From a virus (lineage: Duplodnaviria > Heunggongvirae > Uroviricota > Caudoviricetes), in IMG/VR virus record IMGVR_UViG_2585428015_000012: DNA of 36,836 bases; one strand, written 5' to 3'. The number at the start of each line of letters is the position of its first letter. Within the stretch, counting starts at the first letter, position 1. A model generated the notes under the pieces. It was not told the origin of the DNA. It made no database searches and was given only the letters and a program-made list of their open reading frames with translations. The position numbers were made by a program, and so were the translations under genes. Of the stretch, positions 25,391 through 32,994 are shown in pieces.

Positions 25391-26119
25391 ATGACGCAGA
25401 CACTGAATCCGGTCATCACTGTCACCGTGTCCGGTCCTGTGGGCAGCGGTAAAAGTTACGTACTGGCGCGAATAGAGGAAGTGGTGAAACAGGAATTCGG
25501 AAACAGCGTCATTGTCGACGCCGCAGACGTGGACGGTGAGCGCCGTATGAGTGGGGATGATCTGAGCACATGGCAGAAACCACGGGCTGGCACAGTGATC
25601 AGGCTGGAGGAATACACGGGACAGGGCCTGTTGTCATACGGCGAGGAGCGTATCTGTCGGACGAATGAGCTGCTGGATGTTATATGCCCCACGGGCCGGC
25701 AACCCTGGATACTGCCCGATGCACTGCATGCCACCATTGCGGCACTGATGACAGTTTACGATCAGGAGCTGCTCATGAAGGAGTTACGTAAACTCACTGG
25801 TCAGTCAACAGAATGTTGTTCGTCCCCGAAGTACGGCAAACAGGAACACATCCCGATTAACCAGCCTCCCCGGTTCTTCGACGAATACCTTCTGACACCG
25901 GAAAATAAAGCTGAGCATGAAGAGATCAAAGCGGCGTTGTTCCGGGAAATCAGGAAGATTGCTGAAATGCAACTGGAGGGCGGGCTGGACAGAGTGATGG
26001 CGAGAGGAGAATGGGCATCGCTGTTTGAAAGAGTTTCCCCGGAATTACTTCCCCTCGCACTGGCTATCGGGATTATGCAGACAGCGGATAAACCTCACTT
26101 ACGTTCATTAAACACGTAA
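25391..26119 (+). CDS. P-loop (Walker A) protein of unknown function
   Basis: 242 aa; GAGGAG ribosome-binding site; Walker A motif VSGPVGSGKS at residues ~14-23, followed by IVDAAD; no confident family assignment. Confidence 0.6.
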   Translation: MTQTLNPVITVTVSGPVGSGKSYVLARIEEVVKQEFGNSVIVDAADVDGERRMSGDDLSTWQKPRAGTVIRLEEYTGQGLLSYGEERICRTNELLDVICPTGRQPWILPDALHATIAALMTVYDQELLMKELRKLTGQSTECCSSPKYGKQEHIPINQPPRFFDEYLLTPENKAEHEEIKAALFREIRKIAEMQLEGGLDRVMARGEWASLFERVSPELLPLALAIGIMQTADKPHLRSLNT

Positions 26120-26499
26120 CGCATAATCCGGGATACGCATTCAGCGATGACTGCATTTTCACCGGTTTTTACTGCATCCAGAAGTGACTCTTTAAATGGT
26201 ACGGGCCGGGGCTGCAGAAAGGTCGGCATGGCATTGAGCAGACAGAGCGTTTTTTCCGTGAGGACGACATCAGCCGCTCCCACAGCCAGCAACTGAGAGT
26301 AACGAATATAGCTGTTATCCCGAAGCCATATCAGCGTATCAATAAAACACCGGCACTTTTTCTGGTCGTGATCAACCTGGTCCGGGATATCGAAAAAACC
26401 AGAATAAATCAAAACCTGAGGTGCCGGATGCGTGTTCAGTAATCGGCAGAATATTTTGCCGGTGAGTACATAAAAATCATCATTTAAGGAGTGCATCAT
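26095..26499 (-). CDS. Hypothetical protein, convergent with the P-loop gene
   Basis: 134 aa ORF filling the 378 bp gap between the P-loop gene and the next plus-strand gene; 3' end overlaps the P-loop gene by 25 nt; weak ribosome-binding site. Confidence 0.4.
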   Translation of the reverse strand: MMHSLNDDFYVLTGKIFCRLLNTHPAPQVLIYSGFFDIPDQVDHDQKKCRCFIDTLIWLRDNSYIRYSQLLAVGAADVVLTEKTLCLLNAMPTFLQPRPVPFKESLLDAVKTGENAVIAECVSRIMRYVFNERK

Positions 26500-26713
26500 G
26501 AATCCCCGATTAACGTTAACAGAACATCAGCGCCGTGCTGAAGCAGTGAACAATGTTCTGGAAGATATTATCCGGTTATACCGCGGAGAACTGAGTGTCT
26601 GTCGTGCCGCTTTTCATTTTCAGGGAATACAAAAGCAGTTTGATACTTCTGTTTTTGCAGAAGGTATTACTTATGCCCTGGACCGGATAAGGTCAGAAAA
26701 TCGCCCCGGATAA
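26498..26713 (+). CDS. Hypothetical small protein (71 aa)
   Basis: ATG with AAGGAG 7 nt upstream; start is back-to-back with the minus-strand ORF start. Confidence 0.5.
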   Translation: MNPRLTLTEHQRRAEAVNNVLEDIIRLYRGELSVCRAAFHFQGIQKQFDTSVFAEGITYALDRIRSENRPG

Positions 26714-27698: not shown

Positions 27699-27784
27699 TA
27701 AACCAAACAACTTCCACTATGTCACTGGCGATGTTTTCTGAAAGCATCCAGATCAACCACCTGTCCTTTGTGTCCGGGTCAGTA

Positions 27785-28141
27785 TCAGCCTGCGATTTTT
27801 CCTGGTTTTGGCTGAGTATAGAATCGCCCAATCTCAAGAAATGAGCGTTGTTGGTCTGGTGTCATGTCGTCAAAAGTATCTATTAGTTTTTGTTTTTCTG
27901 GGGAAATTTGATTCTGGTTTCTAGTCATACCATCTGTGCTCATTCCAGTGAGCAACCAATTTACATCAACATTAAACTCTTGATGCATCTTTAACAGAAA
28001 CTCCCCTCCAGGCATCGCCTTTCCATTTTCAATCTGACTGATACCACCATTAGAAATACCTAAACGAGCTGCAAATTCTCTCTGGTTCAACCCTGCTTTC
28101 TTCCTCACAGAAATAACGCGCTCTCCTATATCTTTGCTCAT
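27785..28141 (-). CDS. XRE-family HTH repressor (phage immunity repressor, c-like)
   Basis: 118 aa; HTH motif LNQREFAARLGISNGGISQIENG; transcribed divergently from the early operon across an operator-like palindrome; AT-rich. Confidence 0.75.
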   Translation of the reverse strand: MSKDIGERVISVRKKAGLNQREFAARLGISNGGISQIENGKAMPGGEFLLKMHQEFNVDVNWLLTGMSTDGMTRNQNQISPEKQKLIDTFDDMTPDQQRSFLEIGRFYTQPKPGKIAG

Positions 28142-28164
28142 AAAAGTGAATCTCTATCTTGATA

Positions 28165-28182
28165 TGCTCATAATTATGAGCA
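28165..28182. promoter_or_regulatory. Perfect 18 bp palindrome TGCTCATAATTATGAGCA in the repressor/ner divergent region (candidate operator)
   Basis: Read directly; lies between the repressor start (28141) and the ner-like start (28235). Confidence 0.5.
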
Positions 28183-28234
28183 ATAATCTAACACATATAA
28201 GGCAAACATCATTGCATCAACAAAGGAGACAACG

Positions 28235-28423
28235 ATGACTGCAGAACAAGTCAAAGCTCTCTTCCGCCAGCGCGGGATCACTTTCACCCGCTGGGCAGAA
28301 GAAAACGGCTACAACCGCAATGAGGTATACCGCGTTCTCAACGGGCAGACCAAAGCCCGTTACGGTAAATCCCATGAAATCGCCGTGAAGTTGGGACTGA
28401 AATCAACAGCTCAGGCGGCCTAA
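28235..28423 (+). CDS. Ner-like small DNA-binding protein
   Basis: 62 aa; AAGGAG ribosome-binding site; pattern ALFRQRGITFTRWAEENGY...GKSHEIAVKLGL resembles the Ner/Nlp HTH family; first gene of the early operon next to the repressor, as in Mu. Confidence 0.6.
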   Translation: MTAEQVKALFRQRGITFTRWAEENGYNRNEVYRVLNGQTKARYGKSHEIAVKLGLKSTAQAA

Positions 28424-28469
28424 ATATTTTGAGTCTTTGTAAAAGGTTATCACATATCGCAAAAGAGGT

Positions 28470-28784
28470 ATGCAGATGAGTAAGACGAATGTTTCAAGCT
28501 CCGGCAGTCGCATCCTCCGGGTACTCAAAGCGCTGCGCGGTCATGCCCTGAACGGTATTTCTAACGGTGAACTGGCGACAGCACTGCACGAGTCACCGGC
28601 AAACATCAACCGGGCACTCAACACCCTCATTGAAGAAGGGCTGGCTCTGAAACTGGAGAACGGACGTTTTGCACCGGGCATCCAGTTACTGCAGATCGCC
28701 ATGGCCCACAGTAACGAGATGGCACGTGCACAGGATCGTATTAACGAAATTAACCAACGTGTCATTTCAGGTAGTCGTTTGTAA
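28470..28784 (+). CDS. Putative winged-helix DNA-binding protein
   Basis: 104 aa; good ribosome-binding site; HTH-like segment GISNGELATALHESPANINRALNTLIEEGL. Confidence 0.45.
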   Translation: MQMSKTNVSSSGSRILRVLKALRGHALNGISNGELATALHESPANINRALNTLIEEGLALKLENGRFAPGIQLLQIAMAHSNEMARAQDRINEINQRVISGSRL

Positions 28785-28794
28785 GGAGTAATCA

Positions 28795-29715
28795 ATGGGA
28801 CGTACCAAATCACCGATTAACACTGAACTGAACGCCGATGTACCGCTGTCGGATGATCTCAACGTCAGCCTGAATGCCATGACACAGCATCGCATGGAGA
28901 TCATGCAGCAGTTTGGTGATGGACTGCCTTATGAACGTGAACGCATCGTTCACGAAGCACGTTTTTATATGGCGCAGAGTGCTGAATCTATGTTGGAAGC
29001 GGGTAAGCGGCTGATCATCTTAAAAGAAAATGAACCGCATGGTGATTTCACAAATATTCTGGAAAACGACCTCGGATTAGCACCACAGGTAGCTCGTCGC
29101 ATGATGCAGGCCAGCGTGAAATTTCTCGGCAATGGAGATGAACAGCCAAAACGCTCAGCGCTGAGCGTTTTGGGAAAAACCAAGTTATATGAACTGATGG
29201 TTCTGGATGACGAAGAACTCGACGCATTAGCTGATGGTGGAACCGTCGCCGGTGCAACGCTTGATGATATTGATCGCATGACCAGCCGCGAACTGAAGGC
29301 CGCCCTGCGTGAAGCGCGCGAAACCAACGCAGCTCAGCAACAGGTGCTTGCCGGAAAGGACGAAAAAATCAACGAACTGGCCACAAAACTGGAGAAGAAA
29401 TCGCGCCTGCAACCTCCGCCGCCAGACGAAGAACTGAAAAAATTGCGGGCGGAAGTGACGGCATTAGCGGTTGAGGCCGAATCGGCTATCGCCGTCCGGC
29501 TGTCCAGTGTTTTTGAGACCCTGTGTGAATACTGCACCAAAAACATGATCGATACCCCCAGAGATTTCATGGCCGGTCTGGTCTGCCAGATTGAACGCAG
29601 TGTTCATGCATTACGTGAGACGTTTGACCTTGAGGCCGCTCCATCGGGTAACGATGCCCCCGCCTGGCTGACCGAACCGGAACCTGAAATCAACCGACCG
29701 GAGGATATGCAGTAA
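28795..29715 (+). CDS. Hypothetical early protein (306 aa, coiled-coil-rich; DUF3102-like by recollection)
   Basis: TAAGGAG ribosome-binding site; acidic/coiled-coil composition; between ner-like gene and transposase. Confidence 0.45.
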   Translation: MGRTKSPINTELNADVPLSDDLNVSLNAMTQHRMEIMQQFGDGLPYERERIVHEARFYMAQSAESMLEAGKRLIILKENEPHGDFTNILENDLGLAPQVARRMMQASVKFLGNGDEQPKRSALSVLGKTKLYELMVLDDEELDALADGGTVAGATLDDIDRMTSRELKAALREARETNAAQQQVLAGKDEKINELATKLEKKSRLQPPPPDEELKKLRAEVTALAVEAESAIAVRLSSVFETLCEYCTKNMIDTPRDFMAGLVCQIERSVHALRETFDLEAAPSGNDAPAWLTEPEPEINRPEDMQ

Positions 29716-30032
29716 TGAATACGAATAACACACAAAATACCCTGATGGACAGCCCGGAGGCACTGGGGCACGCACTGTGTAATCTGCTGCCGGAGATGGT
29801 GCAGGGTTTCCGCGTGGTGACCCCTTCCGGTGAAATCTGCGTACCCGCACAGGAGACGCACCCGTTTGTACTGACGATGGAGGTGATGCTGATGCAGCAG
29901 ATAAGACGTCTGCAGAATCAGTCAGCATTACGCCCGGTAGTTGCACCGCAACCGGTAAATACCGTGGTGAAAACCTGCGATGGCGAAACACTGTGCGACC
30001 TCGCCAGAAAAATTGCCGCCAGAATCGGATAA
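29715..30032 (+). CDS. Hypothetical early protein (105 aa)
   Basis: TAATG-coupled to the preceding gene. Confidence 0.4.
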   Translation: MNTNNTQNTLMDSPEALGHALCNLLPEMVQGFRVVTPSGEICVPAQETHPFVLTMEVMLMQQIRRLQNQSALRPVVAPQPVNTVVKTCDGETLCDLARKIAARIG

Positions 30033-30047
30033 CAGGGAAGACAAGCT

Positions 30048-31817
30048 ATGACCCCGGCACTGACTGAAAAACTGGTTGAAACAGCCCGCGCGGCACGTGA
30101 CGCGGGGCATGGTAAACGCGGTGCAATATACGACGCTGCCTGTGCTGAACTTGGCATGTCCCGCGCCACTCTGCTGCGCAGGCTGAAGGAGGTATCTGTG
30201 ACTGATAAACGCAAAAAACGCGCCGATGCCGGGCGCAGCGCCCTGACCCGCGACGAAGCCGCGCTGATATCTGCCACACTGCGTGAGGCCACCCGCAAGA
30301 ACGGTAAGCGTCTCTATTCCATCGCAGATGCAGTGGAAACCCTGCGGGCTAACGGCTTTATCACCGCAGGCAGAACAGATGAAACCACCAGTGAGTTTTT
30401 CCCGTTGTCTGAAGATGCCATCAGCCGTGCTCTGCGTAACTATGGCCTGCACCCGGAACAACTGGATGCCCCTGCACCACATACCGAAGTGGCCAGTCTG
30501 CATCCCAATCATGTCTGGCAGATTGACGCCTCACTCTGCACGCTTTACTACCTGAGCAATGGACATAAAGGGCTGCAGGTGATGGACAGCGCGAAGTTCT
30601 ACAAGAACAAGCCCGCTAACCTTGCCCGTATCGCCAGTGACCGCGTGTGGAGTTACGAGATTACCGACCATGCCAGCGGCTGGATTTACGTTGAGTATGT
30701 GACGGGCGCGGAATCAGGTGAGAACCTGTGTTCTGTGCTTATCAACGCCATGCAGGAGCGTGGCGGCGCAGACGTGCTGCACGGCGTGCCGAAAATACTC
30801 TATCTCGACCCCGGCTCGGCAAACACCGCGGGTATGACGAAAAACATGTGCCGCTCACTGGGCATCGACCTGATAGCGCACAAGCCGCATAACGCCCGCG
30901 CCACCGGACAGGTGGAAAAGGCGCGTGACATTATCGAACGCAAGCTGGAGCCGGGTCTGAAGTTCCGGCCGGTTCACAGTCTGGAAGAACTCAACGCGCT
31001 GGCCGCGAAATGGCGCAGCCACTTTAACGCCACGGCTGTTCACAGCCGCCACGGTAAAACCCGCACGGATATCTGGCTGAAGATTACTGCTGAGCAGCTG
31101 AAAAAAGCGCCTTCCGTTGAGGTATGTCGTGAACTGGCTGTGGCGGCACCAGAACTCCGCAAAGTCACGCCAAAACTTCGTGTCTCGTTCCGGGGCACTG
31201 AATTTGACGTATCAACGGTACCGGGCGTACTGGTTGGTGAAAAACTGATGATTACCCGTAACCCATGGCGCAGCGATGTGGCACAGGTGGTTCTGACCGG
31301 TGAGGACGGCCACGAGACGTTCTTCCTGGTCGAAGAGGTCAGAAAGAACGAGTTTGGCTTTGCTGAAGGCGCGGCGGTATTTGGCGAAAGTTACAAAGCC
31401 CTGCCGGAAACCCCGGCACAGATGGCGGCAAAAGAAACCGAAGCGCTGGTTACCGGTACAGACAACGCCGCAGATGCAGCCGCCGCACGCAAGGCGAAGG
31501 CGCTGCCGTTCGGCGGGCGGCTTGACCCGTATAAACATATCGACGACACCACACTTCCGGCCTATATGCCGAAGCGTGGTCAGGCCTCTGACGTACGCGG
31601 GCCGCGCACTGAACAACGTCCCATGACTCATGTGGAGGCCGCGAAAGCCCTGCGCGATAAGTTCAGCGCCGACGGCCTTACCTGGACGCCGGAACATTAC
31701 CGCCAGTTAACGGCACAGTACCCGGACGGCGTACCGGAAGCCGCACTGGATGAAGTCATGGCCACGCTGACCACACCGGCCCGCAGCAGTGTTATCAGCA
31801 TTGTTAACGGCAACTGA
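30048..31817 (+). CDS. Phage DDE transposase (Mu A functional analogue; integrase-core fold with N-terminal HTH)
   Basis: 589 aa; N-terminal HTH (MSRATLLRRLKEV); central core with conserved acidic residues (WQIDAS..., LYLDPGSANT..., QVEKARDIIE); followed by an AAA+ ATPase gene as in transposable phages. Confidence 0.85.
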   Translation: MTPALTEKLVETARAARDAGHGKRGAIYDAACAELGMSRATLLRRLKEVSVTDKRKKRADAGRSALTRDEAALISATLREATRKNGKRLYSIADAVETLRANGFITAGRTDETTSEFFPLSEDAISRALRNYGLHPEQLDAPAPHTEVASLHPNHVWQIDASLCTLYYLSNGHKGLQVMDSAKFYKNKPANLARIASDRVWSYEITDHASGWIYVEYVTGAESGENLCSVLINAMQERGGADVLHGVPKILYLDPGSANTAGMTKNMCRSLGIDLIAHKPHNARATGQVEKARDIIERKLEPGLKFRPVHSLEELNALAAKWRSHFNATAVHSRHGKTRTDIWLKITAEQLKKAPSVEVCRELAVAAPELRKVTPKLRVSFRGTEFDVSTVPGVLVGEKLMITRNPWRSDVAQVVLTGEDGHETFFLVEEVRKNEFGFAEGAAVFGESYKALPETPAQMAAKETEALVTGTDNAADAAAARKAKALPFGGRLDPYKHIDDTTLPAYMPKRGQASDVRGPRTEQRPMTHVEAAKALRDKFSADGLTWTPEHYRQLTAQYPDGVPEAALDEVMATLTTPARSSVISIVNGN

Positions 31818-31827
31818 GGAGGGAAAC

Positions 31828-32994
31828 ATGCTGGTACTGAAGCAGCAACTGAAAGAGGCCCGTATTCCACAGGCGGTGGTGGCGAGAGCTGTCGATGTTT
31901 CTGAGGCCACGCTGGCCCAGATTGTGAATCATAACGCGTGGCCCCGCACCAGCCCCGGAGAAGTGCGCCGGCGTCTTGCGTCCTGGCTGGAAAGTCAGGG
32001 GATTGATACAACGAAGAGTTTTGATGCTGTACAGGGCGCGGCCACGCCCCGTACAGCGGGTACCACAGATAAAACGAGCCTCAGTGAGGAAGAGAATATG
32101 TTACTCAAAAAACAGGTGTTATTTCCAGCAACCAAAAAAGCGTTTGGTCTTTTCCGTGACCCGTTCGCCGACGAAGCCATGCAGGGTTCTGATGATGTGT
32201 TCACCACCCCGGACATTCGCTACGTGCGTGAGGCGCTGTACCAGACAGCCCGTCATGGTGGGTTTATGGCCGTCATCGGTGAGTCCGGTGCGGGTAAATC
32301 CACGCTGCGCCGCGACCTGACTGAACGTATCAACCGCGAGAATGCGCCGGTAATTGTTATCGAGCCATACATCATCGCTATGGAAGACAACGATGTGAAA
32401 GGGAAAACCCTGAAGGCAGCAGCTATTGCCGAAGCCATTATCAGTACCATCGCACCACTGGAAAGCATCAGACGCAGTCAGGACGCCCGTTTTCGCCAGT
32501 TGCATCGCGTCCTGAAAGACAGCAGCCAGGCGGGGTTCAGCCACGTTCTGGTGATTGAGGAGGCCCACAGTCTGCCCATTCCGACACTGAAACACCTCAA
32601 ACGCTTTTTTGAGCTGGAGTCCGGTTTCAAAAAACTGCTGTCCATCGTGCTGATTGGCCAGCCGGAACTGGCGACAAAACTGTCTGAACGCAATATGGAA
32701 GTCCGTGAAGTCGTTCAGCGCTGTGAGGTGGTCGAACTTCTGCCTCTGGACAATAACCTTGAAGAATTTCTGACGTTCAAACTGCAACGGGCCGGTAAAC
32801 AGCTGACGGACATTATGGACGCCGGTGCAGTGGATGCCATACGTGCCCGCCTGAGCAATCCGGGAAGTCACCGTAAAAATATGGTCAGCCTGCTGTATCC
32901 GCTGGCCGTCAGTAACCTGGTAATAGCCGCCATGAATCTGGCCGCTGAAATCGGGGTTCCACAGGTCAACGCTGACGTTGTCAAAGGGGTTTAA
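31828..32994 (+). CDS. Transposition AAA+ ATPase (Mu B functional analogue)
   Basis: Start at ATG 31828 with GAGGAGGG upstream; Walker A GESGAGKST, Walker B-like VLVIEEAH; N-terminal HTH-like segment. Confidence 0.8.
   Translation: MLVLKQQLKEARIPQAVVARAVDVSEATLAQIVNHNAWPRTSPGEVRRRLASWLESQGIDTTKSFDAVQGAATPRTAGTTDKTSLSEEENMLLKKQVLFPATKKAFGLFRDPFADEAMQGSDDVFTTPDIRYVREALYQTARHGGFMAVIGESGAGKSTLRRDLTERINRENAPVIVIEPYIIAMEDNDVKGKTLKAAAIAEAIISTIAPLESIRRSQDARFRQLHRVLKDSSQAGFSHVLVIEEAHSLPIPTLKHLKRFFELESGFKKLLSIVLIGQPELATKLSERNMEVREVVQRCEVVELLPLDNNLEEFLTFKLQRAGKQLTDIMDAGAVDAIRARLSNPGSHRKNMVSLLYPLAVSNLVIAAMNLAAEIGVPQVNADVVKGV

Follow-up and report, generated by a model that had tools for sequence, protein, structure and literature searches.

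Two conserved genes and one optional gene between the ner-like gene and the transposase gene of a BcepMu-like prophage

What does a transposable phage keep between its ner-like gene and its transposase gene? In the viral record IMGVR_UViG_2585428015_000012 of IMG/VR (36,836 nucleotides (nt) of DNA, hereafter the window), about 1.6 kb carrying three open reading frames (ORF1 to ORF3, 28470-30032) stands between the two, and an earlier sequence-only reading described these as three extra genes inserted relative to Mu, candidates either for anti-defence or host-takeover functions or for a regulatory layer on transposition. The window is a Bcepmuvirus-like transposable prophage: its region 27700-32000 is 100% identical over 4301 bp to Escherichia phage PhiKM (Bcepmuvirus), and its proteins include Pfam matches to Gam, GemA and Mor, all Mu-like early genes. 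It is an ordinary member of the BcepMu-like prophages, sequenced before, and prophage DNA related to region 27700-32000 is present in 643 of 5426 complete E. coli genomes (~12%). We find that ORF1 and ORF2 are core genes of B3/BcepMu-type phages with no function assigned, and not insertions, and that ORF3 is the only true insertion, or accessory gene, among the three.

ORF1 is a basic protein (isoelectric point (pI) 10.7; family median 9.97) that matches the Pfam family HTH_IclR (7.9e-6, 26 bits, cut-off 22) as well as HTH_24 and MarR, in agreement with its earlier description as winged-helix-like. Within ORF2, residues 65-173 match Pfam DUF3102 (PF11300) with 27.0 bits (E 5.6e-6), above the gathering threshold of 24.4 bits, making it a member of that family, and 74 of 81 diverse ORF2 relatives have a DUF3102 match too. 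ORF2 had also been called acidic and rich in coiled coil, and both properties were recovered: its pI is 4.74, and an AlphaFold2 model based on the 81 diverse relatives is entirely helical (predicted local distance difference test score (pLDDT) 89), with long helices at 164-205, 210-249 and 256-276 and a long antiparallel coiled coil spanning 164-249. In the model the N-terminal half contains a helix-turn-helix (HTH)-like helix pair (82-92 and 97-111), and the C-terminal half opens with a conserved motif, LDDIDRM-SxRELRxALREA, which is followed by the coiled coil, the third helix and an acidic tail. Beyond Pfam, the homology and structure searches that the sequence-only reading had proposed yielded little. 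A sequence search of the PDB gave only marginal MarR matches for ORF1 and no match for ORF2, for which a profile search with the 81 relatives found only syntaxin (E 0.09); Foldseek found no match to the ORF2 model in the PDB, and in BFVD only DUF3102 or uncharacterised phage proteins. For ORF1 and ORF2 the PADLOC-DB matches, of HTH or coiled-coil type, were all marginal (E 2.5e-5 to 6e-3), NCBIfam returned nothing useful for any of the three ORFs, and ORF3 had no match in Pfam, NCBIfam, PADLOC-DB or the PDB.

The conservation of ORF1 and ORF2 was followed in bacterial genomes, one per species, which were scanned with a 6-sequence alignment as query; gene order at the 80 loci found was called with our own hidden Markov models (HMMs) built from phage proteins. 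The order winged-helix (wHTH) gene, DUF3102 gene, tnpA (transposase), tnpB (transposition ATPase) was found in 74/74 loci having all four genes, the remaining 6 of the 80 being cut by contig ends or decayed, and the median gap from the DUF3102 gene to tnpA is 3 nt. The hosts comprise Enterobacterales, Burkholderiales, Pseudomonas, Neisseriales, Cellvibrionales, Thiotrichaceae and a metagenome-assembled genome (MAG) from Spirochaetia. Among phages, tblastn detected homologues of both ORF1 and ORF2 in BcepMu (gp12 and gp10), phiE255 (gp42 and gp41), B3 (ORF14 and ORF13), PM105 and KP12, and also in Stenotrophomonas and Ralstonia phages and two cyanophages; in annotated phage relatives these homologues lie directly upstream of the transposase in every case. 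ORF1 is 33-58% and ORF2 34-55% identical to its counterparts in BcepMu, B3 and phiE255, and the family is large (1585 clusters at 50% identity). By tblastn, TnpA homologues appear in 69 phage records versus 32 for ORF2, and JBD25 and JD18 are apparent exceptions; at the equivalent positions, however, both carry proteins of 104 and 317-325 amino acids (aa) that are diverged homologues (hhalign 96.5% and 98.1%, E 1e-13), so that the module order is kept in seven phage genomes (BcepMu, phiE255, B3, PM105, KP12 and the much diverged JBD25 and JD18). The window itself carries the four genes on one strand, in this order and closely spaced. Furthermore, the ratio of nonsynonymous to synonymous substitution rates (dN/dS) is 0.03 for ORF1 and 0.08 for tnpA, indicating purifying selection on ORF1 as strong as that on the transposase. 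ORF1 and ORF2 are thus insertions relative to Mu alone, and the description of three inserted genes stands only for ORF3, which is missing from close relatives; in all phages inspected, which include Bcepmuvirus, Beetrevirus and further relatives, ORF1 and ORF2 are kept and ORF3 is optional. The sequence-only reading had named as evidence against accessory genes a universally conserved core status together with assigned replication or transposition roles: for ORF1 and ORF2 the conservation is there, and an assigned role is not. Two metagenomic loci (L093 2105-3718 and L094 1056-2693) have no separate wHTH gene and carry between ner and tnpA DUF3102 proteins of 537 and 545 aa, with a 240-aa N-terminal extension that matches no family and contains Cys-rich repeats in L093. 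Fusions of wHTH to DUF3102 were sought, and the long family members carry instead unrelated N-terminal extensions, several of them Cys-rich.

The two halves of ORF2 have followed different paths. Across 73 loci (Spearman correlations of pairwise identities), the identity of the ORF2 C-half correlates with that of TnpA (0.64-0.68) and TnpB (0.55), and the wHTH protein correlates with TnpB (0.52) despite lying farther off than the ORF2 N-half, which shows no correlation above 0.45 with anything. The ner and repressor genes are highly mosaic, with correlations of 0.07-0.26. Between phiE255 and BcepMu, TnpA is 95-97% identical, TnpB 98%, and both wHTH and the ORF2 C-half 85%, whereas the ORF2 N-half is only 37% identical. 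Similarly, the prophage of E. coli PK8261 is otherwise 95% identical to the window, and across window positions 29035-29304 (ORF2 residues ~81-170, the HTH-like core; L010 2199-3116) protein identity drops to 50-75% between nearly identical flanks, a patch that looks like recent recombination. Because the N-half diverges in these comparisons while the flanks, the C-half, TnpA and TnpB stay close, the N-domain behaves as an exchangeable cassette inside an otherwise co-inherited block. The C-half is also the best-conserved part in JBD25 gp15.

The N-terminal DNA-binding domain PF02316 is common to MuA (domain I-alpha) and the Mu repressor c, and in Mu it reads the operator and enhancer. In the window, TnpA, ORF1 and ORF2 have no Pfam match to PF02316 (HTH_Tnp_Mu_1) at E<=0.1. 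KS10 (L096 1580-2632) encodes in succession ner, the DUF3102-like gp15, a Mu-type transposase that lacks PF02316, and the ATPase; the match of gp15 to the ORF2 family profile covers the N-domain and the beginning of the coiled coil (hhalign 97.4%, E 1e-11). Conversely, the transposase of DMS3 (L095 1862-4136) has PF02316, and only the 69-aa DMS3-3 gene stands before it; DMS3/D3112-type phages have transposases with PF02316 and no DUF3102 gene. The same complementary pattern was seen in viral contigs, in 11 KS10-like and in 17 of 18 D3112-like ones (one unclear), and a wider census of Mu-type transposases in viral contigs yielded only these two lineages. Direct homology of ORF1 or ORF2 to the MuA N-terminus was considered and rejected, hhalign against the N-terminus of the DMS3 transposase giving probabilities of 0.08% for the wHTH protein and 0.46% for the DUF3102 protein.

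A second link leads to the repressor. In four insect-symbiont prophages (Arsenophonus, Symbiopectobacterium, Pantoea bathycoeliae) a fusion of DUF3102, coiled coil and Xre-type HTH (HTH_3) occupies the repressor position (Table 1). In three of these elements the DUF3102 part of the fusion shares 78-83% identity with the early copy next to it in its own element and 59-70% with the copies of other elements; in the fourth, L049, it is 63% identical to its own early copy over a longer, 257-residue alignment. Since the fused part in these three is closer to its own early copy than to those of other elements, the sequences indicate concerted evolution of the two copies and a need for them to match in specificity.

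All three ORFs lie on the plus strand at 28470-28784 (104 aa), 28795-29715 (306 aa) and 29715-30032 (105 aa), exactly as first described, and the good ribosome-binding sites and translational coupling claimed for them can be read off the DNA. AGAGG lies 6 nt 5' of the second ATG of ORF1 (28476), and RefSeq and the PhiKM record use this start as well, so that ORF1 is more likely to have 102 than 104 aa. ORF2 has AAGGAG 5 nt ahead of its ATG, overlapping the ORF1 stop, ORF2 and ORF3 share a stop/start overlap, TAATG, with GGAGGA in front, and the tnpA ATG follows 15 nt past the ORF3 stop, which makes for tight coupling between the ner-like gene and tnpA. Because all three match PHROG families (5e-45 for ORF1, phrog_1368; 1e-143 for ORF2; 1e-73 for ORF3), they are genuine, conserved genes rather than ORFs arisen by chance. 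A scan of 27700-30200 for sigma-70-like promoters returned a single site (28159-28187), and the 4 terminator-like matches in the same region are no excess over the expectation from shuffled sequence (mean 2.5), which fits one early operon. The spacer of the promoter-like site is filled by the palindrome GCTCATAATTATGAGC (28166-28181, an inverted repeat), and a third GCTCATAA half-site lies at 28136-28143; by their sequence and arrangement these are probably Pe and the repressor operators. The 62-aa gene that follows is ner-like by position and size and is a member of the BcepMu gp16 family TIGR04111; against the Mu Ner family in Pfam, HTH_35 (PF13693), it scores 17.9 bits, below the gathering threshold of 25 bits, and is not a member. 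For tnpB, the program-called ORF begins at GTG 31789 with a 29-nt overlap with the end of tnpA, and database annotations begin at 31828. In the related phage Fc02, a 2023 transcriptome study found the pE operon (ner to mor, transposase A/B included) to be transcribed <=10 min after induction, and apart from transposase A/B, gemA and mor, most ORFs of this operon are without assigned function (PMC9936078).

Table 1. Features of the early region of the window, and repressor fusions in related prophages
Feature	Position	Strand	Remarks
Prophage repressor, Xre/cI-type HTH, 118 aa	27785..28141	-	divergent from early operon; Pfam HTH_3 4.6e-15; PHROG transcriptional repressor families
Early promoter-like site TTGATA, 17 nt, AATAAT	28159..28187	+	promoter scan; upstream of ner-like gene
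ner-like small DNA-binding protein, 62 aa	28235..28423	+	first early-operon gene; TIGR04111 BcepMu_gp16 97.4 bits (cut-off 34); phrog_925 3.8e-33
ORF1, basic winged-helix protein	28476..28784	+	102 aa from ATG 28476; alternative ATG 28470 gives 104 aa
ORF2 N-terminal half, DUF3102 helical domain, residues 1-155	28795..29259	+	
ORF2 C-terminal half, residues 156-306	29260..29715	+	motif, coiled coil, third helix, acidic tail
ORF3, lineage-restricted, 105 aa	29715..30032	+	phrog_5446
TnpA, DDE (rve) transposase, B3/BcepMu type, 589 aa	30048..31817	+	Pfam rve 35.8 bits; phrog_310 3.7e-147
TnpB, AAA_22/ExeA-type transposition ATPase	31828..32994	+	Pfam AAA_22 3.8e-20; phrog_296
DUF3102-HTH_3 repressor fusions	L031 4198-5115; L045 1172-2302; L047 4199-5179; L049 4199-5179	- (all)	

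ORF3 is the gene to which the accessory reading applies, by its narrow range, dispensability and relaxed constraint; the universal presence and synteny of ORF1 and ORF2 speak against extending that reading to them. Among 5.8 billion proteins ORF3 is represented by 11 protein clusters, all from E. coli or Salmonella, and it occurs in one phage record only. The ORF3 region is present in 407 of 632 E. coli genomes with a related prophage and absent from ~225. In prophages without it, the tnpA ATG follows the ORF2 stop at a distance of 3 nt, and the insertion amounts to ~335 bp, extending from the GGAGG near the ORF2 end to the tnpA start. The dN/dS of ORF3, 0.30, is four to ten times that of its neighbours. 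Nevertheless, ORF3 is not a recent import, because its GC content at third codon positions (GC3; 0.62) is the same as that of tnpA and because related sequences occupy the same slot elsewhere: Xenorhabdus ehlersii (L040 6950-7123) carries there a 57-aa homologue sharing the conserved core (28% identity), and in Photorhabdus loci (L035 6958-7010; also L034-L039, L048 and L065) the DUF3102 gene and tnpA are separated by 52-53 nt that hold a 16-codon remnant encoding MNKSELKKMLEKKLKK. Indeed, MNKSELKKMLEKKLKK matches both ends of the Xenorhabdus homologue, with the middle deleted. Every variant keeps the reading frame intact, even at 55% identity (P0235) and at the 28% of Xenorhabdus, with the conserved core QGF-x4-T-x2-GE-x9-PF. 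The ORF3 model (pLDDT 58.8), in the order helix, beta-hairpin, helix, disordered stretch and helix, is of low confidence and shows no recognisable fold. None of these results ties ORF3 to a particular anti-defence or takeover function. In a Rubrivivax MAG (L058 6814-7373) the slot between the DUF3102 gene and tnpA contains another ORF, of ~190 aa, that is not related to ORF3.

How might these genes act? The explanation we tentatively prefer is that the locus makes up the first two members of a transposition module of four conserved genes that defines the B3/BcepMu lineage, and that ORF1 and ORF2 are a trans-acting DNA-binding/adaptor pair controlling transposition; of the earlier proposals, the regulatory layer on transposition is therefore the one favoured for ORF1 and ORF2. 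It starts from what is observed, namely one coupled early operon, a gene pair that is never missing where TnpA and TnpB are intact, and an ORF2 with two histories. KS10 gp15, the complementarity with PF02316, the repressor fusions and the fused proteins of L093 and L094 together suggest that such a pair is tied to both the transposase and the immunity switch. ORF1, as a basic winged-helix protein, would bind phage DNA, and ORF2 would serve as an acidic dimeric adaptor whose DUF3102 N-domain gives specificity, either for a DNA site (possibly via the HTH-like helices) or for a partner, and whose coiled-coil C-half contacts transposition proteins. The two may assemble or license the transpososome, or couple the transpososome to the immunity switch, and would take on in trans the task that in Mu falls in cis to the enhancer/operator-binding N-terminal domain of MuA. 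ORF3 is a small optional gene wedged before tnpA in this E. coli lineage; its product evolves fast, is dispensable and most likely acts as a modulator whose target is the host, competing phages or transposition. A bolder version, which we regard as doubtful, makes the DUF3102 and winged-helix proteins obligatory third and fourth transposition subunits in a large group of phages, those of the B3, BcepMu and KS10 types, supplying the reading of enhancer and operator in trans and forming the direct target of repressor control; the last element is suggested by the fact that some lineages fuse a co-evolving copy of the specificity domain to the repressor.

Several points weigh against assigning the pair to transposition. 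In the literature we found no experiment on ORF1 or ORF2 in any phage, no functional work in publications mentioning DUF3102 and no functional study of gp10/gp12-type proteins. The complementarity with PF02316 rests on three lineages, and the analogy with Mu rests on position and complementarity, since neither protein has detectable homology to the N-terminal domains of MuA. That the ORF2 C-half correlates with TnpA may just reflect the physical linkage of adjacent segments, and linkage does explain part of it; moreover, the DUF3102 N-domain is acidic (median pI 5.0), which is unusual in DNA-binding domains. Finally, conservation beside tnpA fits a transcriptional role equally well. It is thus possible, though we think it rather unlikely, that ORF1 and ORF2 are early regulators of the choice between lysis and lysogeny with no role in transposition, be it as a repressor/co-repressor or as an activator pair in the style of KorA/KorB or lambda CII, and that they stand beside tnpA merely because the early operon begins there. 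Against this, the immunity genes themselves, ner and the repressor, are mosaic, while ORF1 and the ORF2 C-half follow TnpA and TnpB; the pair is parted from tnpA by a small gene at most, with the ORF2 stop typically 3 nt from the tnpA start; the phage already has ner and Mor, and relatives have CII-like regulators as well; and in KS10 the DUF3102 gene also precedes a transposase of an unrelated type.

The view that all three serve anti-defence or host takeover as early accessory genes draws on precedent, since small genes between ner and transposase have such roles elsewhere: DMS3-3 occupies this slot, Aqs1/Tip inhibit PilB and LasR (PMC12378983, PMC12607904), and an Fc02 gene after ner confers superinfection exclusion (PMC9936078). 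ORF3 bears the expected signature in its few clusters, its absence from about 225 of the 632 genomes and its elevated dN/dS. For the locus as a whole we nonetheless consider this view improbable, since over several bacterial orders strong purifying selection acts on ORF1 and ORF2, which are universally present and syntenic, the opposite of accessory counter-defence genes, and since none of the three has a meaningful PADLOC match and ORF3 resembles neither Aqs1 nor BcepMu gp11 and has no recognisable fold. We give as little weight to a role of ORF2 as a ParB/KorB-like DNA-bridging protein that would condense or pair phage DNA (synapsis of its two ends, for instance) without sequence-specific regulation; a comparison of the 81-sequence ORF2 family with the Spo0J/ParB HTH alignment does not support membership (hhalign probability 0.4%). 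That ORF3 might be a decaying remnant or a spurious ORF would be in keeping with its low pLDDT, its match to a single PHROG of unknown function and its loss, or reduction to 16 codons, in related prophages. Against this stand the frame kept open in all variants, the conserved core, a dN/dS below 1, a strong GGAGGA ribosome-binding site, the TAATG coupling and a GC3 like that of tnpA, and we judge it very improbable.

Elsewhere in the window, at 25391-26713, three ORFs without significant family match lie between the lysis genes and a Dam methylase: one of 242 aa with a Walker-A-like GPVGSGKS motif, one of 134 aa on the minus strand and one of 71 aa. Klebsiella phage KP12 has other genes in place of this segment, which may therefore represent a moron or a locus for exclusion.

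Transposable phages are the textbook DDE transposition system, and mechanistic knowledge of them comes nearly all from Mu. In the B3/BcepMu lineage the transposase is of another kind and is always preceded by two additional, uncharacterised proteins, and the lineage is abundant, in E. coli and also in Salmonella, Klebsiella, Burkholderia and Pseudomonas. If ORF1 and ORF2 are transposition or control factors, the minimal machinery would consist of four proteins, not two, and the exchangeable DUF3102 N-domain would offer a natural handle on specificity; were the bolder version correct, DDE-transposase/AAA+ systems would gain a new type of specificity subunit, separately encoded and swappable. 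The lasting interest of the locus lies in the modular evolution, the complementarity with the Mu domain and the repressor link, which lead to a specific, testable hypothesis. The annotation is corrected in the meantime: ORF1 is not an IclR regulator, ORF1 and ORF2 are not morons, and ORF3 is the only candidate accessory gene here.

Compared with known systems, the closest are the pairs of BcepMu, B3 and phiE255, which are true homologues in the same place, directly upstream of an rve transposase and an ExeA-like ATPase, and which are themselves conserved hypotheticals (Pfam DUF3102; PHROGs 1368 and 1748). The window differs from BcepMu in adding ORF3 between the DUF3102 gene and tnpA, whereas BcepMu has the small gp11 between the two conserved genes; ORF3 was considered as a homologue of gp11 and rejected, the comparison giving no similarity. 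With IclR-family regulators ORF1 shares the N-terminal winged-helix motif (the HTH_IclR match), but it has only the HTH in its 102 aa and lacks the effector-binding domain of a family whose members have ~250 aa; the GenBank name overstates the kinship, and the label of IclR family regulator was rejected. ORF2 has neither profile similarity to the central HTH domains of KorB, ParB and SopB, nor Foldseek support, nor the ParB N-terminal domain. ORF3 is like Aqs1 (DMS3-3), Tip (D3112) and gene 10 of Fc02/Ps56 in its slot between ner and transposase, its small size and its variability, and differs from them in having no sequence similarity to DMS3-3 (homology to Aqs1 was rejected at an hhalign probability of 0.3%) and in occurring only in enterobacterial BcepMu-like prophages; by analogy with these small early genes of Pseudomonas phages, a role directed at the host or at phage exclusion is plausible. 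As to Mu, the proteins described here have no sequence relationship to MuA or its repressor (hhalign 0.1-0.5%), and the functions would reside on separate polypeptides, with DNA binding inferred. Even so, we propose an analogy with MuA domain I-alpha and the Mu repressor c, in that a putative specificity domain of the transposition machinery is found on the repressor as well, as in the Arsenophonus-type fusions.

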